A stretch of DNA of 64,000 nucleotides from Prorocentrum cordatum (Eukaryota). The position numbers were made by a program, and so were the translations under genes. Below, one piece after another: positions 25,094 through 44,739 of the stretch (positions are counted from its first letter, which is position 1; the number at the start of each line of letters is the position of its first letter). The notes under the pieces are model-generated. The model made no database searches and was not told the DNA's origin. It saw only the letters and a program-made list of their open reading frames with translations. The stretch is taken from NCBI GenBank assembly GCA_963575745.1, contig CAUYUJ010000025.1, forward strand, positions 1 through 64,000. The letters are read 5' to 3'.

Positions 25094-28000
25094 ATGGTGT
25101 TGCTTGCGCCGCCGCTTCGTTTCGGGCCCCAGCCCTTGGCGGGAAAGAGGGTGAAACCCGTGCGCGCTGAGGGGGGGCAGAAACCGACTGCCGCGAGGGC
25201 GACTCGGAGGAAGGCCGAGGCACAGAAGACATCGCATTCGATCATGCCAAGCTACAGGAGGCACACATTTCAAAGTGTTGGGCGCTCCTCGCTGCGAAAG
25301 CTGAGTCCATTGAGGAAGTCGTCGCAGCCTCTGGCGCGGAGGCCACGGTCATGCGCGGCGGTCAAAGCGGCGAAGAGGTCACAAGCTCCGGCTCTGATTT
25401 CCCCGCCGTTGGCACGGAAGGTTCCCAAAAGTGGAAAGGGTTCGCAGACTCTGTCGCGAAAGCGCCCCATTTCGGATGACATGCTCCAGGTGTTTGACGG
25501 GTCCCTTTCCGAGGCGCAGCATCTGGAACGCCATGCGGCTTGCAAGGGTTTCTGCATTCGGTGCGATTTGCAGAAGCGCCCCAAGGTTTACGAGGCGTGT
25601 ACCCTCTACGAGGGCCGTTCTTGGTTGTCGCGAGGCGTTAACCGTGGCATATGGGGCCTCGGGTGCAGGATATGCGCTGAGTTTGCGGCTTCTGGCAACA
25701 AGTGTGACGGCGCCAGGTTTTCAAAGTTTGCCAAGTTCCAGATTCGCCCGAAGACGGGTTTTCACGCCAGGATGCTTTTAGAACGACATAGCACTTCCGA
25801 TTCGCACCGCGTGGCCTGTGGGATAAAAAAGAGAAAGGGTTCCGACATGTTTGCTCAGCCGACTGTACCACAGCCTCTGGCGTGCCCGACCGTTTGGCCA
25901 ACTGAGAAGCCATGCGAGCTTCTGGTGACCGAGTCTGATACTGGCTTGATAAAGGGAAACGCACCGTCCCCATCGGAGTGGAAAGACGCGTTGGCGGTGC
26001 TATCAGAAGGAGTCTCTCACCGGAAGGACGCTCGCATCTGCGATAAGAAAGGGCACGCGCCTGGCTCGGTGGCGAACAGAAGACGGAAACGCCATCGCCG
26101 ACAAGTCCAAGTGATGGCGGAGGTCTTGAGGAAGAATATCCGCAAAGTGCTGCACCAGGCGACTTCCATATCTTTGGCTATCGATGAGTCGAAGTATCGG
26201 AAAATCGTCCGGTTTCGCGCCGACCTTCCTGCTGTACAACATAGCGGTCAGGGCTTCCACTTGGGCAACGTTGGTGCGTCAGGATATTGCCTCTCGGGCG
26301 TGTTAGGCCTTCTCGACTGCTCGAAGAAACACGCGTCCGACTTCGAGGAGGACCACGCTGTCACTGCGGTTAAGCAGCTTGATGCATTTCTGACAAACTT
26401 TTGCACGCCGCTCGGCAGAATTAAGGGCCGCAGGGGGGCGCAGCCCCTGGCGTGCGATGAGGAACTGAAAGCACACGTGCTGCGAACAGTCACCAGTTTC
26501 TCTGCTGATGGCGCGTCCAAGGAGCGGCGTTCAGTCTTCCTCGCTGCTCGCGAACTGTTCCCCAACTTGTTAATCGCGATTCGCGATCCAGCACACGCCA
26601 TACGCATTGCCGTCAAGTCGATGCATTGCGACGACGTGTTTGGGGAGGTCTGGAGGGAGCTGTTCAATGATCGGCATGCGTTGGTTCCTGACCTAATGCA
26701 CTCTAACAAGCTGCACAACCTTCTGGTGGCAATCCAGGAGGACAACGTGCACGCAGTGGCAGTGCCTGGGTTGCCTGGAGGACCCCAGCCCCTGGCGGGA
26801 ATCGTGCGGAATTTGGCGTTCGCCAAGCAACGCTTCGACTCGACGGCGGACCCAGTGTTGAAAATCGCCCTCTTGCTCGTGCCGGTGGCAACTTTGCTAG
26901 CGCACATCGCGTCGGACCGTCGCCACGACCGGGAGCAGCGCCATCGGGCGGGCGCCTTGTTGCGGAAATTCGATACTAAGTTCTGTATGGCCGTTGGTGT
27001 GGCCGCGGACTGGGGGATCATATGCAATTGGTTCTTGCGACTCTTCGACGTCGCCAGCCACGACATTGCAAAGTCGCGTTCCGAGATCGATTGCATGGTC
27101 GAGACGCTGGATGCTGTCTTCATGGAAGGGCGGGTCTTCCAGTCGGCCCTCCAGGTACCTCCCGTCGCAGCCGCAGCCTCTGGCGCGACCGCCCCGGCTT
27201 CCGAGGAGCCGCTACCGCGGCTCCGTGTCCGAGCGGAAGGACACGAGGCTGGCTTCGTCACAGAGACGGTCATGCGCGATCTTCGCCGCAGGTATGTGTT
27301 CTACGCAGACGGAGACCCCGTGATGCCATGGGGGGAACCAGCAGCAGCGCACAAGGAGGAGCTCCTCCACCGATTGCAGAACGTGGCGAGCTTGACAAAA
27401 GAGCGCTTGCTCGCGGACTTCCCGCGGACTGACGTCCGCTCGGCGCTGGCCATGTTTGACCGGCGTCTCGTGCAGAAAGGCTTCGGCCCAGTGCCCGATG
27501 TGGAAGTGCGGCGTTTCCTTCTGCGGGGCGTTCGCCAGCTGGCGGGCCTCCTCGGCTGCGACGAGCAGGCGGCGGTATTGCAGTACAACGGCGTGCTTCC
27601 CTACATGATGCAACAGATGGGGCCATCCCAGCCACTGGCGGGGGCAACTAACCAGCAAGCGTGGGCTCGCATTCTCGACGATGTCTTTTGGGAGGCGGCT
27701 TGCCCGAACCGGCTCCGTGGGGCCTCTCGCATGCTCTGCCGCCTCGTGCGTTTCTACATTTCGATTGAAGACGGGGAGTGCACCGTCGAGCGCGACTTAG
27801 CCCGATATCGGGATCAACGGGTAGAGCACCGCACTGATGATATTGCTTTTCACGACGACTGCTTGATCCTGAAGTTGAACGGGCCGAAGACGGCATCAGA
27901 ATTCGACGAAGGCGCGGCTCGCCCTGGACTAGGCTTGACGTCCTTCTCCAGGGAATGCGCCAGCCTCTGGCGGGAACTGCTCGGCCAACGGCGTGGGCAT

Positions 28001-28885
28001 TACAACCCTCAAGCTACTGCGGCGGCCACGTTAAAAAGGAAGAGCGCGCCCGGGCTGGTTCGCGGACGTTCTCGGGCCGTCCTTGGGGCCGCCCGCCTGG
28101 CCGTGACTGTTGCCCGCATTCGACGGGCGCGGGGCCCGTCGACCGCGGTGCATTCCGGCGCCGGCACTGAGGGGGGCGCTTTGTGGAGCGACGACATGGG
28201 TAAGTTCCAAGCGCGCAGCCGCAACAATATACCAGGCGTCCAGCAGACGCGGGCGCGTCCAGGGGCGCCTTTCGTGAACCCGCCCGGCGTCAACCTGGCC
28301 CCGAGACTAGGTTCGACGACGCAGCCTCTGGCGCGGCCCTCGCCGTACAGCAAGGTAGCAAGCCTCGGCGGTGCGACCGACATGTGCCCTGCGAGAGGTT
28401 GCGCTACTGCCACTGGCAGTCACCGTTGCGCAGAAGCAGACCTCGTCGTCGTTCCAGACTTGGCGTTTCTCCACGACGTGGACGCGCTGGCAGCAAGTGT
28501 GGATCTGGCCGTCTCTTTCTTTTACATCGCCTCGCTTGGCCTGGGCGTCGTTACGCAGACGCTCCTGGTCGCAGCCCAGGGCCACCCAGACAGAATTCCA
28601 CTCGACCATCGCACGCGCCACGTCCCAGCAAACGAGCGCCAGGAGGTTATTCATCTCGGGCCAGGCCTCGTCACGGTGCATCCAGATGCGCGGGCGGCGG
28701 TGCGGCGCGTGGCCCGCAGAGCGGGGTCGAACCTCGCAGTGTCGGAAGCGGCACCCCCAGCCTCTGGCGGGACGCTTTTCTCGACTCTGCGCGACGTCGT
28801 CGCATGGGCGTCTGCAGCGAGGCAGGTGAGGGATTATATAGGGCCCAAAGCAGTGACTGTGGACGGAATTCCAATGCGCGCCTGA
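25094..28885 (+). CDS. hAT-superfamily-like DDE transposase with N-terminal zinc finger (a downstream ATG at 25244 is an alternative start)
   Basis: Intact 1263-aa ORF. Zinc finger: W..GLGCRIC...LERHSTSDSH (TTF-like). Catalytic/core motifs: SLAIDES (D at 26183), FSADGAS (D at 26507), RDPAH (CxxH equivalent), QRFDS (RW equivalent), CTVERDL (E at 27788), in hAT order. Confidence 0.75.
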   Translation: MVLLAPPLRFGPQPLAGKRVKPVRAEGGQKPTAARATRRKAEAQKTSHSIMPSYRRHTFQSVGRSSLRKLSPLRKSSQPLARRPRSCAAVKAAKRSQAPALISPPLARKVPKSGKGSQTLSRKRPISDDMLQVFDGSLSEAQHLERHAACKGFCIRCDLQKRPKVYEACTLYEGRSWLSRGVNRGIWGLGCRICAEFAASGNKCDGARFSKFAKFQIRPKTGFHARMLLERHSTSDSHRVACGIKKRKGSDMFAQPTVPQPLACPTVWPTEKPCELLVTESDTGLIKGNAPSPSEWKDALAVLSEGVSHRKDARICDKKGHAPGSVANRRRKRHRRQVQVMAEVLRKNIRKVLHQATSISLAIDESKYRKIVRFRADLPAVQHSGQGFHLGNVGASGYCLSGVLGLLDCSKKHASDFEEDHAVTAVKQLDAFLTNFCTPLGRIKGRRGAQPLACDEELKAHVLRTVTSFSADGASKERRSVFLAARELFPNLLIAIRDPAHAIRIAVKSMHCDDVFGEVWRELFNDRHALVPDLMHSNKLHNLLVAIQEDNVHAVAVPGLPGGPQPLAGIVRNLAFAKQRFDSTADPVLKIALLLVPVATLLAHIASDRRHDREQRHRAGALLRKFDTKFCMAVGVAADWGIICNWFLRLFDVASHDIAKSRSEIDCMVETLDAVFMEGRVFQSALQVPPVAAAASGATAPASEEPLPRLRVRAEGHEAGFVTETVMRDLRRRYVFYADGDPVMPWGEPAAAHKEELLHRLQNVASLTKERLLADFPRTDVRSALAMFDRRLVQKGFGPVPDVEVRRFLLRGVRQLAGLLGCDEQAAVLQYNGVLPYMMQQMGPSQPLAGATNQQAWARILDDVFWEAACPNRLRGASRMLCRLVRFYISIEDGECTVERDLARYRDQRVEHRTDDIAFHDDCLILKLNGPKTASEFDEGAARPGLGLTSFSRECASLWRELLGQRRGHYNPQATAAATLKRKSAPGLVRGRSRAVLGAARLAVTVARIRRARGPSTAVHSGAGTEGGALWSDDMGKFQARSRNNIPGVQQTRARPGAPFVNPPGVNLAPRLGSTTQPLARPSPYSKVASLGGATDMCPARGCATATGSHRCAEADLVVVPDLAFLHDVDALAASVDLAVSFFYIASLGLGVVTQTLLVAAQGHPDRIPLDHRTRHVPANERQEVIHLGPGLVTVHPDARAAVRRVARRAGSNLAVSEAAPPASGGTLFSTLRDVVAWASAARQVRDYIGPKAVTVDGIPMRA

Positions 28886-28889
28886 GGAT

Positions 28890-30560
28890 CTTACCCGAAC
28901 AAAAAAGGAGACCCCGCCCGCAAGCAGGCAAGATCACCCAGACGTAGGCCGCACCTCGCCAAACAGTGAACCAGACCACCCAGAAGTAGATCAGACACCG
29001 CCCATATTATAATCAGACCGCCCAGAAAGTAGACTTCCCTCCCCCCCCAGAAAAAAGTAAGCCGGAACGCCCGCAAGTAGACCAGACCCCGTCAAAGAGG
29101 TAACCAGACCACCCAAAAGTGAGGCAGGCCACCCAGGTAGCAGGCCAGACCCAGCCACGAAGTAAAGCAGACCCCGCCAAAAAAGTCATCCAGACCGCCC
29201 AAAAGTAGACCACCTCCGACCCAGAGTAGACCAGACCCCGCCCACAAGTAGACCAGACCACCCAAAAGTAGACCAGACCCCGTCCACAAGTAGAGCAGGC
29301 ACCACCCAAAATTATACCAGGCCGCGCAAGCACACCCGAGCCCGGACAACAGTAGACCAGACCCCGTCAAAAAGTACACCAGACCCCGCAAAAGTAGACC
29401 AGGCCCAGCCCGCAAGTAGACCAGACCCGCCCAACAACTAGACCAGACCGCCCCAAAGTAGACCAGACCCCGCCCAAAAGTAGACCAGACCACCCAGAAA
29501 GTAGTCAAGACCCCGTCCAAAATATACCAGACAACCCCAAACTAGACCAGACCCCGCCAACAAGTAATCCAGACCACCTAAAGGTAGACCAGACCGCGAC
29601 CCAGAGCACGCCAGGCCAGCCGCAAGTAGACCAGACCCCAGACAAAAATAGACCAGACCGCGTCAAAAAGTAGACCAGACCCCGCCCAACAGTAGACCAG
29701 ACCCCCCAAAAAAGAAATAACACATATATATATATATATATATCCAGACTGCCCCAAAGTAGACCAGAGCCCGCCAACAGGTCATCCATGCCACCCAAAA
29801 GTAGACCAGACCCCAACCCAGAGTAGACCAGACCAACGGCAACTAGACCAGACCCAAGACAAAAGTAGACCAGACCCCGACCAGAAGTAGATCAGACCCC
29901 GCCCAAAAGTAGATCAGACCACCCACACGGAGACCAGACCCCGTCCAAAAGTAGACCAGACCCGCCCAACAGTAGATCAGACCACCCGCAAGGAGACCAG
30001 ACCCCGCCCAAAAGTAGACCAGACCCGCCCAAAAGTAGATCAGACCACCCGCGAGGAGACCAGACCCCGCCCAAAAGTAGATCAGACCCCGCCCAAAAGT
30101 AGATGAGACCACCCATAAGGAGACCAGACCCCGCCCATAAGTAAACAAGACCCGCCCAACAGTAGACCTGACCAACCACGAGTAAACCAGACCCCGCCCA
30201 AAAGTAGACCAGACCCCGCCCAAAAGTAGATCAGACCACCCACAAGCAGTCCAGGCCCCGCCAAAAGTAGACCAGACCCCGCCCAAAAGAAGATCAGACC
30301 ACCCACAAGGAGACCAGACCCTGCCCACAAGTAGATCAGACCCCGCCCGCAAGTAGATCAGACAACCCATAAGCAGACCAGGCCCCGTCCAACAGTAGAC
30401 CAGACCCGCCCAAAAGTAACCAGATCACCCACAAGGACACCAGACCCCGCCCCAAAGTACATCAGACCCCGTCCAAAAGTAGATCAGACCACCCACAAGG
30501 AGACGAGACCCCGTCCAAACGTAGAGCAGACCACGCCCGAAAGAATGAATAAGACATCCA
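28890..30560 (+). repeat. 21-22 bp minisatellite, AAAAGTAGA(C/T)CAGACCCCGCCC
   Basis: Tandem array starting just after the ORF1 stop. Confidence 0.92.
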
Positions 30561-30651
30561 CCCAGCGCAGCTGATCGGTTCAAGGACCAAGTGCTGGCAA
30601 CGAGGCGCGCGCCCGACTCTTCTTGCGTCTCTTCGTGTGCTCGCGCCGCCC

Positions 30652-33588
30652 ATGGCGCCTCATCAGGAAGCTCTTCCCGCGCCGAAGAGGCCGCGCACGG
30701 CACAGCAGCCTGCAGCGCCGCCTGCACCGGCGCCTGCGGCGCCGTCTGCAGCGGCGCCCTCACCGCCTGCGCCATTGGCCGTCGAGGAGCTGCTCGAGAT
30801 GGATTCGGTGCAGAGCCAGGCGGGGCATCTGATCAATTGGGCCAAGGGGGCCAAGGAGTACGTCGACAATGCCCTCCTGAAGTTCCTGTCTGAGAAGCAA
30901 GCACTGGTGGCCTTCAAAGTGCCCGCCTCCGTCATGCTCATCCCTCCTCTGAAAATTTCTTCCGCAGCCTCTGGCGCGCACCTGACATCGTTTCGGGAGG
31001 TCATGCAGTACGACAACTTGCAGTTGAGCTTCTCTACGACGGGGCAGTACGAGGCTGCAGGGACGGTGTGGATGCTTGACCCGCTCGCCGCCGACACGTC
31101 CGACATCGTCTCTATCAGCCAGCTCGATGCCGCCATGGCGAACTGGACTGAGGAGAGGCTCTTGCTGTCTTCCGACCACCCGCCGTCGCGGCGCTACTCG
31201 TTCGACGTGCCGCTCCCAGCGCGAGTTGTCAACACCAAGGTTGCCCAGCGCATGACCGAGGGCGAATCCACTGTTCTCATGGCAACGGGAGTGCCCATGC
31301 TGGCGGGGCACCCGCTTGTGTTGGCGTGGTATGGCGCCATGGCAGAGGCATTGTCCGCCGGCAACAGTGATCGCACATTCAAGCTGTTTGAGGCAGCTTT
31401 GTCTGTGCCGATCAGGCTGCGTCTCAGCCCCGACCCTGACGCCTGCCTGCTAGCGTCGCTGCTGTTCTCTGAGACCGTATTCTCTACTTCCGCAGCCTCT
31501 GGCGCGGATGCCTTTTGGAAGCTGGCTGAAAAGGTGAGTCGCCTGACAAAGTACCAGAAGGCTGTGGCCGAGAACATATCTCTTCCGAAATTGACCAAAG
31601 TCCTCACGACCTACGGGATCACGTTCAAGGGCAACGCGCTCACCGAGGCACACGCCAAGGCTTTGAAAAGCTTGACGCCTTTCGTCGGGAATCACGCTTG
31701 CGCCGTGGCTTACTCTTTGGCGGAGGCTTTCTGCCCCGAGCTCCGCGAACCCACGCTGTTGATGCGGCTGGCGCAGCTCTGCAAAGCAAGGACGGCGCCC
31801 TCCCAGGCAGACAAGGACGCGGCTGCCTGCGACTCGATGGCGTTCGTCCTGGACTGCTTGCGCGTTGCCCGGCTGACAGGCGACGCCCCCAGGGGGGGGG
31901 GGCTTTCTGTGGGACGGGTCACGGGGCAAGAGAAAAAGACCCCCGCGCTGACGCACGTGCTGTTCAAGAAACATGATGTCATCGAGTACATTATGCACGA
32001 GGCGGCGATGATCGACAAAGACATGGTGCCTACAGTATCCATGTTTCGCTCGCCGCTTGCCATCGTGAAGCACTTCTCAGCCTCTGGCGAGAAAGGCTTA
32101 GCTGCTGCATTTCGGCGAGAGGAGAGCTCCGATAACACAGGGTTGGAAAACATGTTCGCTGTCCCCGTGGCCGAATACCGCGACCAGCAAGGCCGAGAAG
32201 CGAAGACGCAGGCGTTGATCGACTTCGCGTGGGCCGTTTGGGCTGGCCACTTCGACGAGGAGCTCCAGGAGCTGGCCGCCAAAGACCTGCAGGGAGGTGC
32301 AGCCGCCTTCCTGTGGCACCGGTATTTCACCGATAGCACCAAGGAGATGGGCGTCAAGTACCGCGCGCTGACCGCTGCTTGCGCGGCGGGTCCCATTTCG
32401 ACTGGCACTGCCGAGGGCGGGGCCTCTGGCGTGGTCATGGGGGCGTCCGAGCTCGCGGAGGCCGACCAGGAGGACCTCAAGAAAACCAAGGACTTGCTCC
32501 TCTCTCTTCGCAGGAAGTCCGTTTCGTTCGTGGCGCTGCCGTCGGTTGGCGGAGCCACTGGCGCGGAACACAGCACCGCCCAGTTGCAGAAACTCTGGGA
32601 AGAGATGCGTCTCGGACATAGGTACGCCAGGAAAAAGCAAGACGTCCGAGCATTCGTTGTGTCGGCCGACCTGTTCGCCCCAAACGTGAGCAAGAGCGGG
32701 GCGGCGGCGAGCTTGGGCGACCACGTCGCTGTGGATGCGGAGCGTTTCGGGCGGGTGCTTGATTTCGTCTCGCAGAAGCGTTCGGTTCACGATATCGTCA
32801 TTTTCCTCGACGGGCGGAGCCGGTCGTGCCGCAAACTGCTCGAGGACAAAGAGGAGGGTCTCGCAGCCTCTGGCGCGCACGCTGTGACTGAGTGTTGGTG
32901 TGTGTATGTGCAGCCGGGCAAGGCACAGGACCCCAGAGTCCCGGGAAGAGTGACTTGTTTTGCGTGCAACAACAAGGAAGTCGTCATCTGCTCCATCCCG
33001 AAAAGAGGCGCCATGAAGGTAGTGCAGCGCGCGGAGTTCAACTTGTGCGGCGAGACCACGAGTTCGTACACGACGTACACGGGCGTGCCTATGCGGCAGT
33101 ACCGCGAGCTGCCGCGGATGACCCACGACACGAAGGCCTCGATCTTGGGAAACGCAGCCGCTGGCCCGGTGAGAGGGAGGCGCGCGCAGAAAGACATCGA
33201 GGCGAACGGGCACCCCTTCTCGCACTTGGAGGTCAAGCCATTGAGCTTTTGGCAGCGGATTTGCGAGCACCATCACATCACGCACATCGTTGACTTCACG
33301 GCGGGGTCTGGCGCGTTGGCAATCGCAGCCTCTGGCGCGATGGAGTACGAGGGCGTGGCGGTCAACGAGGTGCACCGGGAGTGGCTCGACGCGACCTTGG
33401 ACCGATGCGCACTGTACATGGCGGGGCATGACAAGAATTTCGCCCAGAAGCTCGGCGGCGACGACGGTTTCGCTGAGAAAGTAGAGAAGTACTTCGCGGG
33501 AACGATGATGGAGGTGCGGCGCTTGCTCGAGCCAATCGCGGACGAGGTGGACGGGGATGGGGGGAGCTCGGACTCAGCGGAGGAGTAG
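30652..33588 (+). CDS. Large protein with C-terminal N6/N4 DNA methyltransferase-like (SAM-binding) domain
   Basis: Intact ~978-aa ORF. C-terminal HPF..KP..W..I...IVDFTAGSGALAIAA..YEGVAVNE matches the beta-class amino-MTase pattern HPT.KP...VLDPFxGSG..A..A...GIE. No DPPY motif found. Confidence 0.6.
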   Translation: MAPHQEALPAPKRPRTAQQPAAPPAPAPAAPSAAAPSPPAPLAVEELLEMDSVQSQAGHLINWAKGAKEYVDNALLKFLSEKQALVAFKVPASVMLIPPLKISSAASGAHLTSFREVMQYDNLQLSFSTTGQYEAAGTVWMLDPLAADTSDIVSISQLDAAMANWTEERLLLSSDHPPSRRYSFDVPLPARVVNTKVAQRMTEGESTVLMATGVPMLAGHPLVLAWYGAMAEALSAGNSDRTFKLFEAALSVPIRLRLSPDPDACLLASLLFSETVFSTSAASGADAFWKLAEKVSRLTKYQKAVAENISLPKLTKVLTTYGITFKGNALTEAHAKALKSLTPFVGNHACAVAYSLAEAFCPELREPTLLMRLAQLCKARTAPSQADKDAAACDSMAFVLDCLRVARLTGDAPRGGGLSVGRVTGQEKKTPALTHVLFKKHDVIEYIMHEAAMIDKDMVPTVSMFRSPLAIVKHFSASGEKGLAAAFRREESSDNTGLENMFAVPVAEYRDQQGREAKTQALIDFAWAVWAGHFDEELQELAAKDLQGGAAAFLWHRYFTDSTKEMGVKYRALTAACAAGPISTGTAEGGASGVVMGASELAEADQEDLKKTKDLLLSLRRKSVSFVALPSVGGATGAEHSTAQLQKLWEEMRLGHRYARKKQDVRAFVVSADLFAPNVSKSGAAASLGDHVAVDAERFGRVLDFVSQKRSVHDIVIFLDGRSRSCRKLLEDKEEGLAASGAHAVTECWCVYVQPGKAQDPRVPGRVTCFACNNKEVVICSIPKRGAMKVVQRAEFNLCGETTSSYTTYTGVPMRQYRELPRMTHDTKASILGNAAAGPVRGRRAQKDIEANGHPFSHLEVKPLSFWQRICEHHHITHIVDFTAGSGALAIAASGAMEYEGVAVNEVHREWLDATLDRCALYMAGHDKNFAQKLGGDDGFAEKVEKYFAGTMMEVRRLLEPIADEVDGDGGSSDSAEE

Positions 33589-33899: not shown

Positions 33900-34600
33900 A
33901 GGCCAGGCCGCCCGTCAAACCAGGCCAAACCACCCATAAGTAGACCAGACCCTGTCCACAAGTAGAGCAAAACCCGCCCAAAAGTAGACCATACCACCCA
34001 TAAGTAGACCAGACCCCGCCCAAAAGTAGATCAGACCACGCCCAAAAGTAGATCAGACCACACACAAGGAGACCAGACCCCGCCCAAAAGGAGATCACAC
34101 CCCGCCCAAAAGTAGATCAGACCACCCGCAAAGAGACCGGACCCCGTCCAAAAGTAGACCAGACTCGCCAGACAGTAGACCAGACCACCCTTGAGTAGAC
34201 CAGACCCCGCCTTAAAGTAGGTCAGACCCCGCCCAAAAGTAGATCAGACCACCGACAAGGAGACCCGGCCCCGTCCAAAAGTAAACCAGACCCGCCCAAC
34301 AGTAGACCAGACCACCCTTGAGTAGACCAGACCCCGCCTTAAAGTAGGTCAGACCACGCCCAGAAGTGCATCAGACCACCCACAAGGACGCCAGACCTCG
34401 CCCAAAAGTAGATCAGACCCCGCCCAATAGTAGATCAGACCACCCACAAGGAGACCAGACCCCGTGCGCAAGTAGAGCAGACCCCGCCCAAAAGTAGATC
34501 AGACCACCCACTAGTAGACCAAACCCTGTGCCCCAGTAGAGCAGGCCCGCCCAAAAGTACACCAGACCACACGCAAGTAGAGCAGACTCCGCCCAAAGTG
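33900..34600 (+). repeat. AAAAGTAGACCAGACCCCGCCC array
   Basis: Same unit as 28890-30560. Confidence 0.92.
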
Positions 34601-34604
34601 CGTC

Positions 34605-35229: not shown

Positions 35230-35309
35230 TTTTGCAACCGAGCGAAGAAAACATGTTCGGATTTCCGACATGTTTTCTTTCTTTGTGTGGGGGGGGGGGG
35301 GACCACAAG

Positions 35310-35740: not shown

Positions 35741-35749
35741 TATATTTTA

Positions 35750-36730
35750 TGGTCGGGGTCTGATTTACTTTTGGGAGGGGTCTGGTCAACTTATGTGTGG
35801 TCTGGTCTACTTTTGTGCGGGCCTGCTCTACTTGTGGACAAGGTCTGGTCTACTAGTGCGTGGTCTGATCCGCTTCTTGGGCGGGGTCTGATCTACTTTT
35901 GGGTGGGGCATGATCTCCTTGCGGGTGGTCCGATCTACTTTTGGGCGGGGTCTGATCTAGTTTTGGGCGGGGTCTGGTCTACATGTGGGTGGTATGATAT
36001 GCGTCTGGGCGGGTCTGCCCTATTTGTGGACCAGGTCTGGTCTACGTTTGGGTGGTCTGATCTACTTTTGGGCAGGTCTGGTCTACTTTTAGGCGGGGTC
36101 TGGTCTCCTTGCGGGTGGTCTGATCCACTTTTGGGCGGTGTCTGATCTACTTGCGGGCGGGATCTTGTCTCCATGTGGGTGGTCTGATCTACTTTTGGGC
36201 GAGGTCCCTTCTACTTTTTGGGGGGGTCTGGTCTACGTATGGGTGGTCGGGTCTGCTGTTGGGCGGGTCTGCTCTACTTTAGGGCGGGATCTGGTCTCCT
36301 TGTGGGTGGTCTGATGTACTTTTGGGCGGGGTCTGATCTACTTTTGGGTGGGGTCTGATCTCCTTGCGGGTGGTTTGATCTGCAATTGGGCGGGTCTGCT
36401 CTACTTGTGGACGGGGTCTGGTCTCCTTGTGGGTGGTCTGATGTACTTTTGGGCGGGGTCTGGTCTCCGAGTGGGTGGTCTGATCTACTTTCGGGCGGGG
36501 TCTGATCTACTTTTGGGCGGGGTGTGGTCTATTTGCGGGTGGTCTGCTCTGCTTTTGGGCGGGTGTGCTGTACTTGTGGGCAGGGTCTGGTCTACGTATG
36601 GGTGGTCGGATTTATTTTTGGACGGGGTCTGGCCTACTTTGACGCGGGGTCTGGTCTCCTTGTGGGTTGTCTGATGTACTTTTGGGCGTGGTCTGATCTA
36701 CTTTTTTGGGCGGGGTGTGATCTACTTTAG
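35750..36730 (-). repeat. Inverted AAAAGTAGACCAGACCCCGCCC array
   Basis: GGGCGGGGTCTGATCTACTTTT units. Confidence 0.92.
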
Positions 36731-37863: not shown

Positions 37864-40484
37864 ATGTCGGAGCATCCACTCGCTGGGCCCCAACCTTTGG
37901 CGGGAGACTTGACTGAACCCCAGCCTCTGGCGGGAAACTTGCGGGATTGGCGCCGCGGCAATCCTCTCCGAACCAGCGAGACCATTGCCTTTGGCAATAC
38001 CAGCGCCAAGCCGACCCCCGGCGCACAACGGCCGTGGCACTACTACTCAGTCCAAATGCCTACCGGGGGAAGCCACAAGTGGCTCTTCGTTCCTTTCCTC
38101 GTGAGGGCCCCAGCCTCTGGCGGGGCACCCCTTCCAATGGGAGCGCCGCAGGAGGCGCAGTTGGAAACCAGAGTGAGGGAGGGCGTTTTGATGGAGCACT
38201 ACACCAACATCCACCGCCTACGCGCCCTCTTGCTGAGCCACCCGCTCGTCTCCACCGCCGCGCCGCACAAGGTGGACAAGGCGCTCGACCCCAAGTGTTT
38301 CGACGAGGACGGTTGGGCCTATAAATATCACCAGTCCCCTTGGGACTTGTCAGTGACGCTCGCAGCCTCTGGCGCGAAGTTCACCCTCGGATGGACCACA
38401 AACCATATCAAGAAGCCGCTCGCGGCGATGTGGTGGTTGATGCAAGGGAAGGCCGCGACGGCGGATAACCTCGCCCACGCGGAGGCGATATTCTTGGATG
38501 TCGCCGAGGCCGCCCGCTCGTGGCCGCTCGGCTTCCCCCCTGAGGAGGGGGGGGCCGGGGCCAGTGCGAGCTCTTCCTCTGCCGGCGTCGCGCCCCAGCC
38601 TCCGGCGGCCACTGCGGCGCCGCCGCCGGCCAGGCCCCTGCCTCCGGCGGCAATTGCGGCGCCGCCGCCGGCCAGGCCCGCGCCTCCGGCGGCAACTGCG
38701 GCGCCGCCGACGGCCGGGCCCCAGCCTCTGGCGGGAGACGCGGCGCGGGCGCCGGCCCGCGCCAGCGAGCCCGCGCCGGAGAGGCCGCCGGCCCCCGGCG
38801 AGCCCGCGCCGCAGAGCCCGCCAGCCCCCAGCCAGCCCGCGCCGCAGAGCCCTCCGGCCCCGGACACCGCCTGTCCGGTGGAGCCTTTGGCGGGGGCGCC
38901 CGCCGCCGCGCCGGGGGCGTCCGCCGACGCCACCAGCGCGGCCTCCGCGCTGCTGCCAGCGGCGAGCGTCGATGCCGGTGCTGCCGCCTGCGACAAGCCT
39001 GCGGACAGCGCCCCAGGCGGCGCCGAGCGCCGCGACCACCTCGAGGATTTCCAGCTGGACGAGGCGATGAGGATGTCCGAGCAGGAATCGGCTGAAGTCC
39101 GCGATCTCGATTACAGCCCAGATCAGAAGTCGGACCCTCCGTCGGACGAGGAGGAGGAGGGCGTCGAGGCCGACCCAGCGGAGCCGCAGAGCAGGGTGCG
39201 TCGCCGCTCGAGGTCGCGAGCGGGGCCCGCGCGCCCGCGCGACCCAGCCTCTGGCGGGGCGGACGGCGAGATCGACCTCACCATGCACGTGTCCGCCAAG
39301 AGGCTGCAGCGGCTGACCGAGGACCAGAAGGAGCGGCTTCGCCAGATTGTGCGCACCAGCGATAGGCAGCTGCACTTCGGCGATTACTGGCAGAGCAGGC
39401 CGCGGGCGGGGGGTCCTCCTCGGGAGCCAGCGGCGACGGCCAGGGCTCGCGATCAGCATCGGGCGCTGCTCCTCCAGCACCTGCGGGCGCACGCGGACCC
39501 GATCCCAGACGCCGCAGAGTTCATCGCGGGAATCCCTTCCAAGAACGCCGGGCGCTGGGGCGTCAACGAGGATGTCGTGAAGGCCATCGCCAGCAGGAAG
39601 GTCCACTACATGCATTTGCTGACCCACCAGATGGGGGAGCACGACCGTCTGCTCTTCTGCGAGGAGTGGCCGGACCTCAGCCCAGCCTCTGGCGGGTGGT
39701 GGGTGCTCCAGGAAGAGGACTGGCTGCAGCTCAAGCAGGAATGGCGGGGGTTGTCTCCAGCGATGCGAAAGCCCAGTCCACCCCCAGCAACGTCCTCTCC
39801 GCCCATCCCCGCTTCCCCCCGCGCGGGAGGGGGGGGGGTCGGCGAACGAGGAGGGAGAGGACGAGGAGGGGGGAGGGGAGGGGAGAGGGGGCGAGGGCGA
39901 GGAGGGGGATTGGGGAGAGGGCGGCACCGACGGAGACACCCGTCGCCTCGATTGAGGACTTCCCCGGCGTGCGCGACACGCGCGACTACGTCAAGCACAT
40001 TTTGACGCTGCACGATGGCGAGGCCAGGCTTGTGCGCACAGAGTGGAAGCCCTTCCCAGCCTCTGGCGGGAGCATCCTTCAACCTGCCTACTGGCATTAC
40101 CAATTCGCGCGCAGCTGGGCGACTTATTCGTGGCTCTCCTCACGCAAAGGGCACTTGACCAACGAAGACTTGGAGTTGATCATGACACAGGACGGCGGCG
40201 AGACTGGCTTGATGAGGTGGAACCCAGCCTCTGGCGGGAACTGGCAGATCCGCACTGGCCAATTCATCGCGCTGGCCGAACTCTTCTGGTTCGGGAAAGA
40301 CTGGTGCTCATGCTACGATATCTACCGCGCTTACCTGAGCCTGCCTGTCTGGATCCAGAAGCGCAAGCATCCTGTCTCGCAGAATGCGCCGGGAACCATG
40401 AGGCGCAACGCGAAAGCGTTTCACTACCAGGAGACCGGTATGTACGGTTTGCCCACGGCGCCTTGGAAACGCGGGCGGCGGTGA
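37864..40484 (+). CDS. Hypothetical protein with Pro/Ala-rich linker; apparent frameshift near 39830-39920
   Basis: ORF 37864-40005 is protein-like up to a G-rich tract. Protein-like sequence (SIEDFPGVRDTRDYVKH...WKRGRR) continues in ORF 39666-40484. Confidence 0.6.
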
Positions 40485-41139
40485 GCACGTGCCCTTGGCG
40501 CCTTCGGTGCCGATCCCAGCCTCTGGCGGGAATAGTCTCGCGCCCAGCTCTGGTGCCCGTGTCAGTTTTGGCGGAAGTGCAGATTCCGCGCCCAGCTCTG
40601 GTGCCCGTGTCAGTTTTGGCGAGAGTGCAGATTCCGCGCCCGAGCGACGCCGAAAAACGTTTGAAATGAGCTTCCCTCGTCGTCGTCGTCGTCGTCTCCC
40701 CTCCGCCTCCCTGCTGCATTATTCCTCAGTCCCCCCCCCCTGCTCCCGATGCTTACTTATCTTTCTCCCTCGTGAGGGCCAGGGCGCAGCGAAACCCAGC
40801 CTCTGGCGAGATGGAGGCTCGACGTCCGGGGAATGCCCCGCGCAACCAGAACAGGACTGCCTGCCCCGTCCTCCGGGGGACTTCGCTCCTGCGTCGCTAT
40901 CCCGTCCTCTGCCTGCCCCCGGCTCTACTTGTCCCCCTGGAGCCTCTTGGGGGTTCCTGGGGCCTCCTGGGGCTTCCTGAGGCTTCCCAGGAACTCCAGG
41001 GGCCTCCTGCGGCCTCCTGGGGCCGCCCGGGACCTCCTGCGCCCTCCTGCGGCCTCCTGCGGCCTCCGGGGCTTTCCTGGTCAGAACAACGCAGGACACG
41101 TGACAAAACAAGGTATACCGAACCAAAAAAAACAAACTC

Positions 41140-41830
41140 AAAGTAGATCACACCCGCCCAAAAGTAGATGAGACCCGCCCAAAAGTAGGTCAGACCACAC
41201 GCAAGGAGACCATACCCCGTGGAAAAGTAGATCAGACCCCGCCCAAATGTAGATCAGACCACCCGCAAGGAGACCGCACCCCGTCCAAAAGTACACCAGA
41301 CCCGCCCAAAAGTAGACCAGACCACCCAAAAGTAGACCAGACCCCGTGGAAAAGTAGATCAGACCCCGCCCAAAAGTAGACCAGACCCCGCCCAAAAGTA
41401 GATCAGACCCCGCCCAAAAGTAGATCAGACCGCCCGCAAGGAGACGTGACCCCACCCACAAGTAGATCATACCCCGCCCAGAAGTAGATCAGACCTCCCA
41501 CAAGGAGACCAGACCCCGCCCAAAAGTAGATCAACCCCCAGCCAAAAGAAGATCGGCCCCTGTCCCCAAGTAGCGCAGACCCGCCCAAATGTAGACCAGA
41601 CCCCACCCCAAAGTAGATCCAGCCCCGCCCACAAGTAGATCAGACCAGCCGCAAGGAGACCAGACCCCGTCCCAAAGGAGACCAGACCCCGCCCAAAAAT
41701 AAATCAGACCTCCCACATGTGCACCAGACGCCGCCCAGAAGTGTACCAGCCCCACCCCAGAGGAAATCATACCGCCCATTATGAGGCCAGATATCGTCCC
41801 AAAGTAGACCAGTTACCGCCCAGTAGGGCA
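41140..41830 (+). repeat. AAAAGTAGACCAGACCCCGCCC array
   Basis: Same unit; lies between ORF3 and ORF4. Confidence 0.92.
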
Positions 41831-42046
41831 GATTAAATACACCCAAAGAAAGCACCTGCCCCCGCCCATAATTGTACTACACTGCTCTTCGCAGCATGCA
41901 ACAAACGCTTGACGCCCCTCTCACTATCCGATTGTGCGTAGCTGCGTGGGCTCGAGCGCGCACTGGTCCAGCCCGCGCTCTTCGTGCGGGCTATCGGCCG
42001 CGCGGGGTGACGGAGCGCTCCGCGCGCTCTCGCAGCCTCTGGCGCG

Positions 42047-44282
42047 ATGGGGCTCCGTTGCAAGACGTGCCTTGAGCGCGCCAGAGATGATGGGAGCTGC
42101 AAAAACCCGAAGTGCACAGCATACCGCGCTCCAGTGCCGAGAGGGCAGCACTGGAAAATTGCCCGGTTGAGTGGTGCCTTGGGCAAAGCGGCCGACAAAG
42201 TAGGCGCATGCGTCGCCGGCGGGTTCATCCTCACTTTGCTACACAGACATGACATACGTGTCGGCGTAGCGAGCGGCGAGTATCTTCGGGCCGCAGCCTC
42301 TGGCGCGACTGCAGTGCGCTTGGAGCTTTTAGCGGTGGTCTATCTGTGCTACTGGCGGTGGTCGACGAGCTCACTTCTTGGACACTTGTCAAAGGCATTA
42401 TCCCGTTTTCAGCACGCGGAGTCCACAGAGCGAGCTGAAATGTTACAGGTCGCGTGGACTTCGATGGAAGCGGACGCGAAGGGGCGCCAGGTTCTCGGAT
42501 ACCGTGACGAGCACAAGGTTGAGTTAATACGCCGCGATGAGAGGAGCAAGCTCGGGAACGCAGCCTCTGGCGCGACTTTTGCGTATCATCCATTCGTGAA
42601 CCCGGCAAGTCGCCGCACTGGTGGACAGGAGTTCGCGCTGTTGCTGCCTGATGTGCGGGATGGCAACCTCCGGGCAGCTTGCGAGGACCTCGCCAAGGTG
42701 TTCCACGTGAAACCCACGTTCAGGGACGCGGAGAGCGCCCTGAGGAAGCACGAGATAAAGCTTTGGGCCGGGGCCCACGCCAAATACAATCGAATCAGGT
42801 GGTACGGGTGCTGCAAATGCACCCCGCCAGCGGGCTCCCGACCGCGCGTCGGGCCCAAGTGGAGCCCGGCAAGATTTTCCTTTGTCCCTCTTCTGCGTCG
42901 TGCCCCCCCCGCCCCATGTGGCCCCTCCCCCTCCCCCTCGCGTGTCCTCTTCCTCCTCGTTCGCTGCCCGCGTTGACCCTCCCCCCTCCTCCCTCTCCCT
43001 CGGTCAAAAGGATCACGCAGGGCCGCCGCCCGCCCGCGCGCGGCACCTGCAGCTGCTTCCGGAACAGGGCTTCGTTTTTGATTCTCTTCTGGGAACCGTA
43101 GCGGAACATAGCCACCCGAACAGATGCACCCGCGGCCCCGCGTCAGACGCGGGCCGCGCGGGCAGGTCGGCCCAATCCTTAGGGGGGGCGCCAGATATGA
43201 GATATTTGGGCGCGCTTGGCCCCGTCTTCCGTCTGCTGCGTGCCCCCGACGCAGTAATCCGGTAATCCTGTAGTCCCCCCCTCGCCCTCCCCCGCAAAGC
43301 GGATTGTTGTATTCCTGTCGTGTTCCCAAGGTTCATGCGGTGGTTGTTCAAGGCGGAGGGCCTGGGCGCGCCCGTCGACGAGGAAGATTGGCCCCTGCTC
43401 GCTGGCATGGGGTCCGGGGCCGAAGAGGGTTTGGACGACGCGGGAATTGATTCCTACGAATCGGCTGAGGTGGCCCGCGCAGCCTTGGCCGCTGTACTCG
43501 CAGCCCCTGGCGCGACGTCTCCGCAAGATGGCGTTGGTGCACCTCCCGAGTATATTTACGGACTCGACGACTTGGTTTGCTTCCTGTGCTTGTCCACAAA
43601 CAAAGAAGCTGTTGCCCGCAAGGTGTTACCGCCGCCAGCGCTCCCGGTGTCCGTCGTTGAGGATTTGGGGATGGCTGCCCCCGTCGCAGCCTCTGGCGCG
43701 ACAGCGTGCCCTGGCGAGACTCGTTGTTATGCGAGAATCACAACGAAAGCCACCGCGAAGCCAGCCATCGTCTCCATCTTGGCGTGGGTGTTCCAAGACA
43801 TTTTGCGATGGGTGCGCGCGCCCGCCGCGGGGGCACTGTGTCAATGTTGCCGAGCTTGGCACGCTGGAGGCTTATTTCTGGCTTGCGCGCTGTCTGAGAG
43901 GAGGCGGTGCGTCGCAGACTCTGTCGCGAGCATCTTGTCCTTCGATGCGAAACCCGCCCAGGCATTGCTTCAAGCAGGGGCTTCGAGGAGTGATATTCTC
44001 CGCGCCTGGGCGCGCGCGTGGGACTTGCTCGACGGGCTCCCCCCGCGTGCCTGTTTGGGCTTCGACGAACGATTGTTGTCCATGGCACTAGTCCGCATGG
44101 GCGTCAAGGAACACCTTCGGGGTGACGCGAAGGACGCGGTTGCCCAGATGTTCTTGGACGCAGGCGGGGAGCATTCGCTTGCGAGGGAAGCGTCGTTCGC
44201 AGAGGTGGAGAAAGGGCAGCTTGCAGAGATCGAGTGCCATGTGTTGATGTTGGCGCACAGCGATTCTGGCCTCTGGCGATAA
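42047..44282 (+). CDS. Two-exon hypothetical protein (exons 42047-42798 and 43331-44282) with N-terminal CxxC...CxxxxC and a possible HhH-type DNA-modification domain
   Basis: AG|GT donor at 42799 and CCAAG|G acceptor at 43330 join ORFs 42047 and 43320 in frame (KYNRI-R-FMRWLF). Confidence 0.6.
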
Positions 44283-44739
44283 TTCGCAGCCTCTGGCGCG
44301 AACCAGCATGGGGGGCGGCCGTTGGGGCGGCTGCTGGGGGGCGATCAGCATTGCCTGATCATGTCTGCTGCAATTGCGCGGGCTCGAGCAGCGGCGGCAT
44401 GTGTAGGGCCGCTTTCAAGAGCTGGGCGTCGGCAAACGCAGCGCATGCTCGAACCTGCCAGGGAAAACTGAACCCGGTCAGTTTCTCACAGTGCTTGTTT
44501 CTTGCGTCGCACTTCTGCTGGATACGTTTATCGGAGACGGAGCGAGAAGCCATTTCTGCTATTATTATTACAACTATCACCACCACAATTACTACTAGTA
44601 GTACAATTGTTTCCGCTTCGCGAATCCCCGCCAGTCCATTCAGAAGCCCTTCCCATGAGAGCTGACGGGCAATGGAAAAAAGAAACACATATAGTGAAAC
44701 AGAGCGGACAAGGAGAGGAGGGGGAGGAGGGTGTCGAGC

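Follow-up and report, generated by a model that had tools for sequence, protein, structure and literature searches.

Covarying bulged hairpins recur on the sense strand through the genes of a DNA-transposon-like element of Prorocentrum cordatum

The first 64,000 nucleotides (nt) of contig CAUYUJ010000025.1 of the dinoflagellate Prorocentrum cordatum (assembly GCA_963575745.1, forward strand; the whole stretch is called here the window) contain, at about 25.1-44.3 kb, the four genes of a eukaryotic DNA-transposon-like element, designated open reading frames (ORFs) 1 to 4. A 16-nt unit recurs through all of them on the sense strand, and comparison with related loci supports its interpretation as a single-strand hairpin, composed of a 3-bp variable outer stem, a 1-nt bulge on the 5' side, a GCC/GGC inner stem and a triloop. 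The letters of bulge and loop are specific for each lineage of the element, and the amino acids encoded at the hairpin sites change with them.

The core of the unit is the 12-mer CAGCCTCTGGCG, present in 27 exact copies over 25,325-44,298; all 27 belong to the + strand, and the - strand has no copy. An earlier, sequence-only reading of this DNA had listed 27 exact copies on the + strand, and all 27 coordinates were reproduced; 100 dinucleotide-preserving shuffles gave a mean of 0.03 copies and a maximum of 1. If the loop is left free (CAGCC-NNN-GGCG) the + strand holds 33 copies, the 27 exact ones and six loop variants, and all 33 fall within 25,130-44,298; the two matches on the - strand both lie outside this interval. 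The loops of the variants are CTT at 25130, CCT at 26441, 26786 and 43501, ACT at 27629 and TCC at 38596; the first three types had already been reported and their sites are all on the + strand, whereas the TCC copy had not been listed. The other ~45 kb of the window, including a reverse-transcriptase-like ORF of another element, contain no exact copy, so that the restriction of the motif to 25-44.3 kb and its absence from the spacer arrays, as originally described, are borne out for the exact 12-mer and for CAGCC-NNN-GGCG on the + strand. A covariance model built from 119 non-window copies only, described below, returns 34 matches of at least 20 bits in the window, all on the + strand (the best - strand score is 18.7 bits), 33 of them inside 25.1-44.3 kb and one at 54318.

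The central pair of the outer stem, N/N', lies just outside the 12-mer. Its flanks in the window are mostly CG..CG and CC..GG, with CA..TG at 25871 and CT..AG at 32078, where the outer stem is lengthened to 5 bp (TTCTC/GAGAA). Imperfect copies are 40797, with a C/A mismatch, 27961, with the outermost pair broken, and 26441, with a G.T wobble; the four combinations and the first two exceptions had been recognized from the beginning, and the wobble is added to them. Position 26440 is an A in most contigs of other runs, which turns the G.T pair of this hairpin into A-T.

The unit is translated in three frames, as QPLA, (A/P)ASG(A/G) and SLWR, in agreement with the first description, which had taken this as a sign that the constraint lies on nucleic acid and not on protein and had proposed comparison with a codon-shuffled null. 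For this null synonymous codons were permuted inside each ORF, preserving both protein and codon usage, in 300 shuffles. The five ORF pieces are expected to contain 0.12, 0.03, 0.09, 0.01 and 0.01 exact copies and contain 6, 5, 6, 2 and 1, in total 20 observed against 0.26 expected. Thus, on the basis of the shuffles and of the positions, the CAGCCTCTGGCG motif is real, strand-specific, confined to the gene cluster and unexplained by the peptides it encodes.

Relatives were collected by scanning metagenome contigs with the ORF1 alignment, which gave 45 loci (L numbers below) at 63-23% identity. Units of this kind occur in them too, exclusively on the sense strand. Copies were picked only by their inner core, as 9-mers GCC-NNN-GGC present at least three times per locus, after dropping nine low-complexity loop types; this yielded the 119 distinct non-window copies, which include orthologous sites of related loci and are not all independent. 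Bases pair in 92.3% of the cells, compared with 79.6% in shuffles, and the covariation score is 0.291 versus 0.078, a value reached by none of 500 shuffles; slid controls all remain at or below 0.086. All four Watson-Crick pairs occur at N/N' (GC 40, CG 39, AU 14, UA 9, besides UG 5, GU 2 and 10 others), so that the covariation first perceived in the window is significant in the larger set. The outermost pair is CG 59, GC 15, UG 8, GU 2, AU 1, UA 1 and other 33, and the innermost pair of the outer stem is CG 102, UA 4, GC 1 and other 12. The pairing needs one base bulged on the 5' side and ends after three outer pairs; no sequence information is found beyond the 16 nt, such as a conserved flank resembling a methylation consensus. 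The inner stem has compensatory variants as well: GAC/GTC at 25443 and 43913 in the window, CCC/GGG at L062:688 and GGC/GCC at L075:951. Covariation, register and inner-stem compensation together support the outer stem, bulge, GCC/GGC stem and triloop that had been proposed. As to the strand, 177 of 178 covariance-model matches in the 45 loci (E <= 1) are on the sense strand; these loci are the model's own training source, and for them the strand count alone is informative. Together with the 34 of 34 matches in the window, this agrees with the sense-strand orientation claimed at first.

A second class of hairpin is found in the most distant ORF1 relatives, at 25-30% identity (L078-L085, L090, L095 and L096). 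Its unit has a covarying stem of 4-5 bp, one bulged nucleotide on the 5' side and an inner GG/CC that encloses the loop CGTGT; all 33 copies are on the sense strand, 89.4% of the cells are paired compared with 65.8%, and the covariation score of 0.635 versus 0.197 is reached by none of 500 shuffles. By its predicted pairing, this class is the same architecture as the main one written in other letters. Examples are L079:3839-3870 and L082:3500-3531, and one site of this class maps to ORF1 residues 388-395, near the main-class site at 382-389.

The combination of bulge base and loop, called here the flavour, is specific for each lineage and nearly uniform over all the sites of that lineage (Table 1). 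Within some loci the loops are mixed; in the L055 group they are GCT 23, TCT 7, ACT 5 and CCT 4. No base of the bulge or of the loop is universal across lineages. Thus the bulged A of the first description holds for the lineage of the window, whereas elsewhere the bulge is T, G or C. At the protein level, 56 homologues can be sorted by their flavour peptide into Q-, L-, R- and QPAA-types. P. cordatum itself has proteins with QPLA (P0009, P0028) and with LPLA/PAPGG (P0034, P0036); these few partial gene models suggest that two flavours share one genome.

The alignments of ORF1 and ORF2 reveal that the hairpin peptides occupy the same columns in homologues down to ~35% identity. On ORF1 the sites shared across flavours are at residues 262, 452, 555/567, 690-700, 848, 958, 1079 and 1224, and the lineage-specific ones at 200, 382-389, 634, 715, 878, 1094-1098 and 1162-1171. 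Distant homologues have at these sites ordinary residues and no gaps, which indicates that the units arose by substitution; the homologue alignment thereby answers in favour of substitution the question, raised with the motif, of whether its peptides were inserted or substituted. Judged from these comparisons, the constraint on nucleic acid overrides protein sequence, as originally surmised: the unit uses three frames, it exceeds the codon-shuffle expectation, and in relatives the peptide follows the flavour.

Units of at least 20 bits number 10 in ORF1, 7 in ORF2, 10 in ORF3 and 6 in ORF4. Among the 33 CAGCC-NNN-GGCG units, 29 are inside ORFs and four are at most 130 nt from an ORF end (33622, 40795, 42031 and 44285); a scan of the window finds none in ~6 kb of intergenic tandem arrays and in 1.1 kb upstream of ORF3. 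The mean spacing in the window is 320-450 nt. In ORF1-3 its coefficient of variation is 0.24-0.34, compared with 0.80-0.87 for random placement (P <= 0.004), and the units are therefore more evenly placed than at random; in ORF4 the value of 0.63 is non-significant. Evenness is weaker in 16 relatives (coefficient of variation 0.33-0.87, combined P 0.0005, the loci not being independent). Four of the five hairpin sites that fall within the structural model of ORF1 are in coil or low-confidence segments, according to DSSP and to the predicted local distance difference test (pLDDT).

Several other origins of the motif were considered and discarded. Chance or composition is ruled out by the dinucleotide and synonymous-codon shuffles, and a protein motif by the use of three reading frames and by peptides that track the nucleotide flavour. 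Insertion or excision footprints are ruled out by the residues, not gaps, present in distant homologues and by flavours that shift in concert, and a conserved flanking motif by the lack of information outside the 16 nt. Tiny introns or a splice-linked motif do not agree with ORFs that read through the units and with predicted proteins of relatives that retain the peptides. A hairpin mimicking the dinoflagellate spliced leader was dropped, since the likeness noted for the A/TCT flavour disappears in the flavours with a T or G bulge and in the CGTGT class. As for a viral origin, a 16-mer scan of viral contigs returned 52 single matches on either strand, chance-like, and PHROGs gave none. Rfam covariance models, run on both strands of 24,000-45,500, gave only four microRNA-model matches, at 23-31 bits against gathering thresholds of 70-100, none of them at the hairpins.

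The nearest named relatives of ORF1 and ORF2, 81-92% identical, are protein products of P. cordatum; public assemblies contain dozens more, with identities down to 24%. No Pfam family was found in any ORF (for ORF1 no match at E <= 0.01, for its relatives P0002 and P0034 none at E <= 0.1), ORF1 matches neither the Pfam hAT dimerisation domain nor related domains, and sequence profile searches of the PDB with ORF1 or ORF2 gave no match. The assignment of ORF1 comes from an AlphaFold2 model of residues 330-960 (pLDDT 81.3, predicted template modelling score 0.81), which matches the Hermes hAT transposase (4d1q/2bw3/6dwz) with a Foldseek E of 2e-5 and a probability of 1.00 over ~630 alignment columns. 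A second structural comparison with Hermes gives a Z of 18.5 and a root mean square deviation of 4.0 Å over 386 aligned residues, the next unrelated rows of RNase-H fold having Z ~8. According to the model, the core of ORF1 is a hAT-like transposase, with an RNase-H-like domain and a large all-helical insertion domain, i.e. the Hermes fold. Residues D364, D472, D498-x-x-H501 and E899 are invariant across 17 aligned sequences; their order and spacing, with the D-x-x-H, presumably fit a hAT-type DDE enzyme with a C/DxxH motif, an assignment made by pattern and not by residue-level superposition. The view of the host as a eukaryotic DNA-transposon-like element, advanced with the motif, is thus supported at the level of the transposase gene. 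Element ends, namely the short terminal inverted repeats and the 8-bp target-site duplication of hAT elements, were not found in the window, where the only inverted repeats seen are at the level of the arrays.

The C-terminal 384 residues of ORF2 (600-983) were modelled with a pLDDT of 82.2. Their structural matches are CcrM (Z 13.5, 218 aligned), EcoP15I Mod (13.1), M.BceJIV (13.0), RsrI (11.6) and the PvuII N4-cytosine enzyme (11.1), followed by ciliate MTA1 (~10) and by the RNA enzymes METTL3/14 (~9.5), with a Foldseek probability of 1.00. By predicted fold, therefore, the domain is nearest to bacterial DNA N6-adenine/N4-cytosine methyltransferases. The S-adenosylmethionine-binding motif I, THIVDFxxGSG, is at the C-terminal end, with D287, G291 and S292 invariant in 37 sequences, and gives a weak HemK-family match (E 0.031), far below cutoff. 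At the place of motif IV (window 32650-32680, ORF2 residues ~672-686), after the strand AFV(L/V)SA, the alignment has a conserved D-L-F-P-P-N, the window having FAPN; F81 and P83 do not vary and N84 is conserved in at least 90%, and the canonical (D/N/S)PP(Y/F/W) is not found there, the position being judged from strand order in the model and not from residue-level superposition. The methyltransferase-fold domain could accordingly have either an unusual chemistry or a role as a binding module. Neither PF01555 nor PF05063 is above threshold in ORF2, P0057 or P0058; for the relative P0057, a UniRef name and an Atlas cluster at 0.83 are leads only. The order ORF1 then ORF2 recurs in the relative locus L068, and a methyltransferase-like ORF adjoins a transposase-like one also in the distant locus L080.

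Searches with Pfam, PHROGs and NCBIfam assign no family to ORF3 and ORF4 and find among the ORFs no coat-like or replicase gene and no HUH or tyrosine enzyme family. ORF3 has Pro/Ala-rich and Arg/Gly-rich stretches, and its homologue search, swamped by low complexity, gave two close relatives only. Its region changes frame at least twice at 39366-40980 (open frames 37729-40005, 39366-40484, 39956-40669 and 40402-40980); these changes could be introns, frameshift mutations in the window copy or separate small ORFs. The start of ORF3 (37864-37934) encodes three PLAG-type peptides, EHPLAG, PQPLAG and PQPLAG, and only the third corresponds to an intact hairpin; in the second the peptide is retained via synonymous codons (CAA, TTG) and the stem is broken. 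The two pieces of ORF4 are separated by a gap at 42977-43265.

Hundreds of contig pieces at 85-95% identity to the ORF1 region (24500-29050) were found in runs X1, X2, X8 and X13, 770 in X2 and 205 in X13, indicating that the element family is multi-copy in those samples; the pieces reveal no transcript ends. Besides the spliced-leader-like stretch that lies 56 nt ahead of the start codon of ORF1 in the window (Table 1), similar stretches, all on the sense strand, precede ORF1 at L054:266 and L069:1320 and lie between ORF1 and the next gene at L063:2615, L064:2311, L068:1721 and L071:2466. Relics of the dinoflagellate spliced leader are usually interpreted as the mark of trans-spliced mRNAs that have returned to the genome as DNA copies; the stretches found here may be such relics, and they suggest a sense transcription of individual genes.

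The genes are separated by tandem arrays. Between ORF2 and ORF3 these form a palindrome, in which 22-nt arrays (33925-34597, inverted at 35750-36728) enclose 31-nt arrays (34617-35047, inverted at 35309-35741), with arms of up to 413 nt that are 82-94% complementary. Related arrays of ~20-22 nt flank genes in the window (29074-30543, 33925-34597, 41140-41812) and in L053, L064-L066, L069 and L072; in relatives the unit holds GTGGTCCTGTTTACTTT-like words on the + strand, and the arrays occur in either orientation, without hairpin units. It is conceivable that they bind the transposase or have a regulatory role. The cluster is flanked by the simple repeats ATG x213 (21407-22041), GAT x105 (47603-47916) and TCGG x161 (46457-47072), with G-rich and C-rich arrays at 20.0-21.3 kb and 44.8-45.3 kb. 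Elsewhere in the window, the lone unit at 54318, CGCC-GCC-CCT-GGC-GCG with a C bulge (21.5 bits), is in a GC-rich palindromic stretch of ~100 nt (54280-54380), bordered by inverted TTTCTTGGAT / ATCCAAGAAA ends, which may be a small inverted-repeat element or chance. A 655-aa ORF at 527-2494 (+), with a weak RVT_1 match (E 3e-5, 24.2 bits, cutoff 29.6) and without the hairpin motif, belongs to another, unrelated element.

Table 1. Hairpin units, genes, arrays and flavours. Letter pairs such as CG..CG are the two bases outside the 12-mer on each side; exact means an exact CAGCCTCTGGCG core
Feature	Position or locus	Strand	Basis
Spliced-leader-like stretch, 56 nt upstream of ORF1 ATG	25021..25038	+	likeness to dinoflagellate spliced leader
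ORF1, 1263 aa, hAT-like (Hermes-fold) transposase by model, N-terminal CxxC...H...H finger	25094..28885	+	model, alignment
Hairpin, loop CTT, CC..GG, ORF1 QPLA	25128..25143	+	covariance 20.8 bits
Hairpin, exact, CG..CG, ORF1 QPLA	25323..25338	+	exact match, covariance model
Variant hairpin CGCA-GAC-TCT-GTC-GCG, compensatory inner pair, QTLS where relatives have QPLA	25443..25458	+	ORF1 alignment
Hairpin, exact, CA..TG, ORF1 QPLA	25869..25884	+	exact match, RNA/DNA folding
Hairpin, loop CCT, CG..TG (G.T wobble), ORF1 region	26439..26454	+	other copies A at 26440, giving A-T
Hairpin, loop CCT, CC..GG, ORF1 QPLA	26784..26799	+	relaxed-loop match
Hairpin, exact, CG..CG, ORF1 AASGA	27172..27187	+	covariance 28 bits
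Hairpin, loop ACT, CC..GG, ORF1 QPLA	27627..27642	+	relaxed-loop match
Hairpin, exact, outermost pair broken GC..GG, ORF1 SLWR	27959..27974	+	exact match
Hairpin, exact, CG..CG, ORF1 QPLA	28320..28335	+	exact match
Hairpin, exact, CC..GG, ORF1 PASGG	28756..28771	+	exact match
Intergenic array, ~22-nt units, without hairpin copies	29074..30543	+	repeat and hairpin scan
ORF2, 983 aa, C-terminal ~380 aa of beta-class amino-methyltransferase fold by model, N-terminal ~600 aa without assignment	30637..33588	+	model, alignment
Hairpin, exact, CG..CG, ORF2 AASGA	30963..30978	+	exact match
Hairpin, exact, CG..CG, ORF2 AASGA	31491..31506	+	exact match
Hairpin, exact, CT..AG, 5-bp outer stem TTCTC/GAGAA, ORF2 SASGE	32076..32091	+	exact match, folding
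Weaker copy CGGA-GCC-ACT-GGC-GCG, innermost outer pair G/G	32550..32565	+	covariance 20.4 bits
Hairpin, exact, CG..CG, ORF2 AASGA	32862..32877	+	exact match
Hairpin, exact, CG..CG, ORF2 AASGA, adjoins methyltransferase motif I	33324..33339	+	exact match, ORF2 alignment
Hairpin, exact, CG..CG, 34 nt past ORF2 stop codon	33622..33637	+	exact match
22-nt and 31-nt arrays as one large inverted repeat around ~35,180, without hairpin copies	33925..36728	.	repeat and hairpin scan
ORF3 region, open frame 37864-40005, then overlapping frames 39366-40484 and 39956-40669	37864..40669	+	ORF list
Decayed copy, still QPLAG, ORF3	37889..37904	+	sequence
Hairpin, exact, CC..GG, ORF3 QPLAG	37919..37934	+	exact match
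Hairpin, exact, CC..GG, ORF3	38109..38124	+	exact match, folding
Hairpin, exact, CG..CG, ORF3	38361..38376	+	exact match
Near copy, loop TCC, CC..GC, within 42-nt tandem repeat	38594..38609	+	covariance 17.9 bits
Hairpin, exact, CC..GG, ORF3	38720..38735	+	exact match
Hairpin, exact, CC..GG, ORF3	39243..39258	+	exact match
Hairpin, exact, CC..GG, ORF3	39681..39696	+	exact match
Hairpin, exact, CC..GG, ORF3 region, other frame	40055..40070	+	exact match
Hairpin, exact, CC..GG, ORF3 region	40223..40238	+	exact match
Hairpin, exact, CC..GG, ORF3 region	40515..40530	+	exact match
Hairpin, exact 12-mer, N/N' mismatch CC..AG	40795..40810	+	exact match
Intergenic array, ~22-nt units, without hairpin copies	41140..41812	+	repeat and hairpin scan
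Hairpin, exact, CG..CG, last base directly before ORF4 ATG	42031..42046	+	exact match
ORF4, two open pieces, 42047-42976 and 43266/43320-44282	42047..44282	+	ORF list
Hairpin, exact, CG..CG, ORF4 AASGA	42292..42307	+	exact match
Hairpin, exact, CG..CG, ORF4 AASGA	42559..42574	+	exact match
Hairpin, loop CCT, CG..CG, ORF4 second part	43499..43514	+	relaxed-loop match
Hairpin, exact, CG..CG, ORF4 second part	43685..43700	+	exact match
Variant hairpin CGCA-GAC-TCT-GTC-GCG, compensatory inner-stem pair	43913..43928	+	variant search
Hairpin, exact, CG..CG, 3 nt past ORF4 stop codon	44285..44300	+	exact match
Flavour A/TCT, frames QPLA, AASGA, SLWR	window, 27/33 copies		
Flavour A/GCT, frames QPLA, AAAGA	L055 group		
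Flavour T/TCT (T bulge with TCT or CCT), frames LPLA, AASGA, CLWR	L053 group		
Flavour G/GTT, frames RPLA, AVG	L073 group, 38-43% identity		
Flavour A/AGC, frames QPAA, ASG	L093		

What the data require is a folded single strand, a reader of the bulge and loop letters, and the co-evolution of this reader with the lineage. The explanation favoured here, tentatively and with somewhat less than even confidence, is that the hairpins are cis tags folding on the sense strand, most likely in the mRNAs of the element, and read by a co-evolving, probably element-encoded protein; that the strand which folds is RNA, that a reader exists and where it comes from, and what follows from its binding are inferred. 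A short variable outer stem, a bulged base, a G:C clamp and a small loop would present bulge and loop to a sequence-specific binding protein, and with 6-11 tags per gene, about one per 300-450 nt and extending into the untranslated flanks, each transcript would be marked repeatedly as the element's own. The reader would co-evolve with the tag, bulge and loop changing at all sites together within a lineage, and it is this concerted shift that makes a reader encoded by the element itself probable; such an origin is also favoured by the presence of Q-type and L-type proteins in P. cordatum and by flavours that are uniform within and different between lineages. Candidates are the N-terminal 600 aa of ORF2 together with its methyltransferase-fold domain, the Arg/Gly-rich ORF3, and ORF4. 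Binding might then give the transcript a privileged fate, such as export, stability, translation, modification or protection from silencing. RNA is ranked first because each of the four genes is separately tagged, because the tags end at gene borders and are absent from the arrays, and because single mismatches of the inner stem are of the G.T type at five sites and of the A.C type at none, small numbers in any case; the spliced-leader-like stretches before genes, which indicate sense transcripts, favour it as well.

A number of observations weigh against this explanation. Both assignable genes, by their predicted folds a hAT-like transposase and a methyltransferase near to bacterial DNA enzymes, would act on DNA, and no RNA-binding domain was recognized in any ORF with Pfam, PHROGs and NCBIfam. 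All the genes have one orientation, so that sequence does not discriminate between RNA of the sense strand, DNA of the non-template strand and one of the strands at replication. RNA and DNA energy models both return the bulged hairpin, for the main class and for the CGTGT class, and the outer stem, with 30 G.T-type and 31 A/C-type pairs, has no clear RNA signature. Transcription, the retention of the hairpins in mRNA and their folding are presumed from contig sequence, and the co-existence of flavours in one genome from a few partial gene models.

Several of these points favour a hairpin formed by the sense strand as single-stranded DNA, either the non-template strand or one strand during replication, and read by the methyltransferase-like ORF2 protein or by the hAT-like transposase. 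A mark or a bound protein on one strand could distinguish sister copies after replication and so set the time of transposition; another possibility is that second-strand synthesis is primed or organised by the hairpins. After replication, the transposition of Tn10 and Ac/Ds is governed by methylation of one strand, and CcrM reads a single strand. To a methyltransferase, a base in bulge or loop would be presented already flipped out, and the DFxxGSG of motif I is invariant in ORF2, whose structural neighbours are led by CcrM, EcoP15I Mod and M.BceJIV, ahead of METTL3/14. The linkage between methyltransferase-like and transposase genes, seen in L068 and as far away as the deep lineage L080, the Hermes-like DNA transposase fold of ORF1, the folding of the hairpin under DNA parameters, an outer stem without wobble excess and a fairly even spacing of ~400 nt all agree with this possibility. 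However, a whole-element signal needs no separate set for each gene, whereas the hairpins are limited to genic segments and absent from ~6 kb of arrays. Moreover, with a bulge that is A, T, G or C depending on the lineage, a fixed target base for an N6-adenine or N4-cytosine enzyme is not evident, the F-P-P-N at the place of motif IV (FAPN in the window) is non-canonical, and a bulged hairpin of 6 bp would have only marginal stability in DNA form, at a predicted -3.4 to -8.4 kcal/mol. A DNA-level reading is the main rival, considered rather less likely than not.

If the hairpins are RNA, their reader might also be a host factor, the tags being an export, stability or translation signal for intronless element genes and the flavours tolerated drift. 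The architecture is constant over both hairpin classes and the bulge and loop letters vary, as a reader of shape would allow; the mixed loops of some loci, such as the L055 group, and the lack of a recognized RNA-binding gene in the element point in the same direction. This appears improbable, since within the window the tag is not general to genes, being absent as exact copies from the other ~45 kb, and since bulge and loop are nearly uniform in each lineage despite the changes of Q to L/R and of S to A/V, which argues for a letter-specific reader that changes with the lineage. Finally, the unit is near-palindromic, and hAT transposases bind short reiterated subterminal motifs; the copies could in principle be duplex binding sites for a transposase or repressor, or a functionless by-product of mutation or repair, as in quasi-palindrome correction. 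A duplex site gives no reason for the N/N' complementarity of 109 of 119 copies, in all four pair types, or for the compensation in the inner stem, and all copies run in one direction over 19 kb instead of being inverted at two ends; palindrome correction would erase the bulge, which is kept in every lineage, and sites conserved to ~35% protein identity that override protein must be under selection. Explanations of this last kind are given very little credence.

Among known systems, the nearest in architecture and dispersal are the coat operators of MS2, Qbeta and PP7 and the packaging signals of single-stranded RNA viruses. In coat-operator hairpins the stem letters are free, the bulged base and the loop carry identity, and cognate pairs differ between related lineages. 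The unit described here is likewise a small hairpin with free stem letters, identity in bulge and loop, many sense-strand copies dispersed in coding sequence, and flavours that differ by lineage as cognate pairs do. The carrier, however, is not an RNA genome but a eukaryotic nuclear multi-gene element with a hAT-like transposase and a DNA-methyltransferase-like gene; the copies are near-identical and not degenerate, no particle is known, and the strand that folds is presumed to be RNA. Therefore, of the likeness to the MS2/Qbeta hairpins drawn in the first description, the architecture stands, whereas no coat-like gene was recognized. Papers on such operators and dispersed packaging signals include PMC3662417, PMC4751978 and PMC4836477.

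Other systems are nearest in other respects, the integron attC and IS200/REP hairpins in strand-specific recognition by way of extrahelical bases and the MAT2A/METTL16 hairpins in being reiterated and read by a methyltransferase. The hairpins of integron attC sites, IS200/IS605 and REP (repetitive extragenic palindromic) sequences are single-stranded DNA with extrahelical bases, extragenic, longer, placed at element or cassette borders and handled by tyrosine or HUH enzymes. They share with the present unit a folded single strand as the object of recognition, strand choice by bulged bases and covarying stems, but here the hairpin has 16 nt and lies within ORFs at conserved codons, 6-11 times per gene, and is neither extragenic nor accompanied by a recognized HUH or tyrosine enzyme. 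In the 3'-untranslated region of MAT2A, reiterated hairpins are read by the methyltransferase METTL16; the presence of several small hairpins per transcript and of a methyltransferase-fold protein is similar, whereas here no base of bulge or loop is universal, ORF2 is nearest to DNA enzymes of another class and the copies are in the coding parts of every gene of a mobile element. In the arginine-rich-motif/hairpin pairs lambda N-boxB, HIV Tat-TAR and Rev-RRE, an element-encoded protein binds a bulged, G:C-flanked hairpin of a nascent or nuclear transcript and alters the fate of its own RNA, to which the bulged G:C-flanked unit and the Arg/Gly-rich stretch of ORF3 can be likened. Those systems, however, have one or few sites in untranslated or defined regions, compared with ~35 sites through ORFs, and the stretch of ORF3 is in low-complexity, frame-broken sequence with two relatives only. 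As to hAT elements such as Hermes and Ac, the ORF1 core resembles the Hermes transposase in fold, and presumably hAT transposases in its invariant acidic residues and D-x-x-H motif, and differs in having no Pfam hAT domain and in belonging to a group of several genes, one of them methyltransferase-like, separated by tandem arrays. Reiterated hairpins within ORFs are not known from any hAT element. Full-text literature searches turned up no paper that describes the motif or a DNA transposon with such hairpins in its ORFs; as a string, the 12-mer occurs in four unrelated papers. The unit lacks defining features of the coat operators, of the attC, IS200 and REP hairpins and of the MAT2A hairpins, having neither a recognized coat gene nor an RNA genome, neither an extragenic site with an HUH or tyrosine enzyme nor a fixed target base.

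Going further along the lines of the RNA tag, each lineage might possess a private operator code, consisting of its own hairpin about every 400 nt and of a co-evolving element reader, perhaps ORF2 using the bulge as a pre-flipped handle, so that co-resident lineages would recognise their own RNAs only. This extension is speculative and rather doubtful; if true, it would represent an RNA-level discrimination between self and non-self by a DNA transposon, and would offer natural orthogonal pairs of RNA tag and protein.

In any case, every gene of the element has about ten conserved sites where, over a long evolutionary span, a short nucleic-acid structure outranks protein, and this precedence of the hairpin points to something that a eukaryotic DNA-transposon-like element strongly requires. 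The system can be tested either way, with defined 16-nt oligonucleotides and four candidate proteins, and the natural flavours A/TCT, A/GCT, T/TCT, G/GTT and A/AGC, with the CGTGT class, provide ready specificity swaps and possibly orthogonal tag/reader tools. If the tags act on single-stranded DNA with the linked methyltransferase, they would be a new strand-marking device for the control of transposition. If their action is on RNA, a cut-and-paste element would recognise its own transcripts much as viruses do, and this would bear on how transposons escape or use the control exerted by dinoflagellate hosts, whose genes are regulated largely after transcription.

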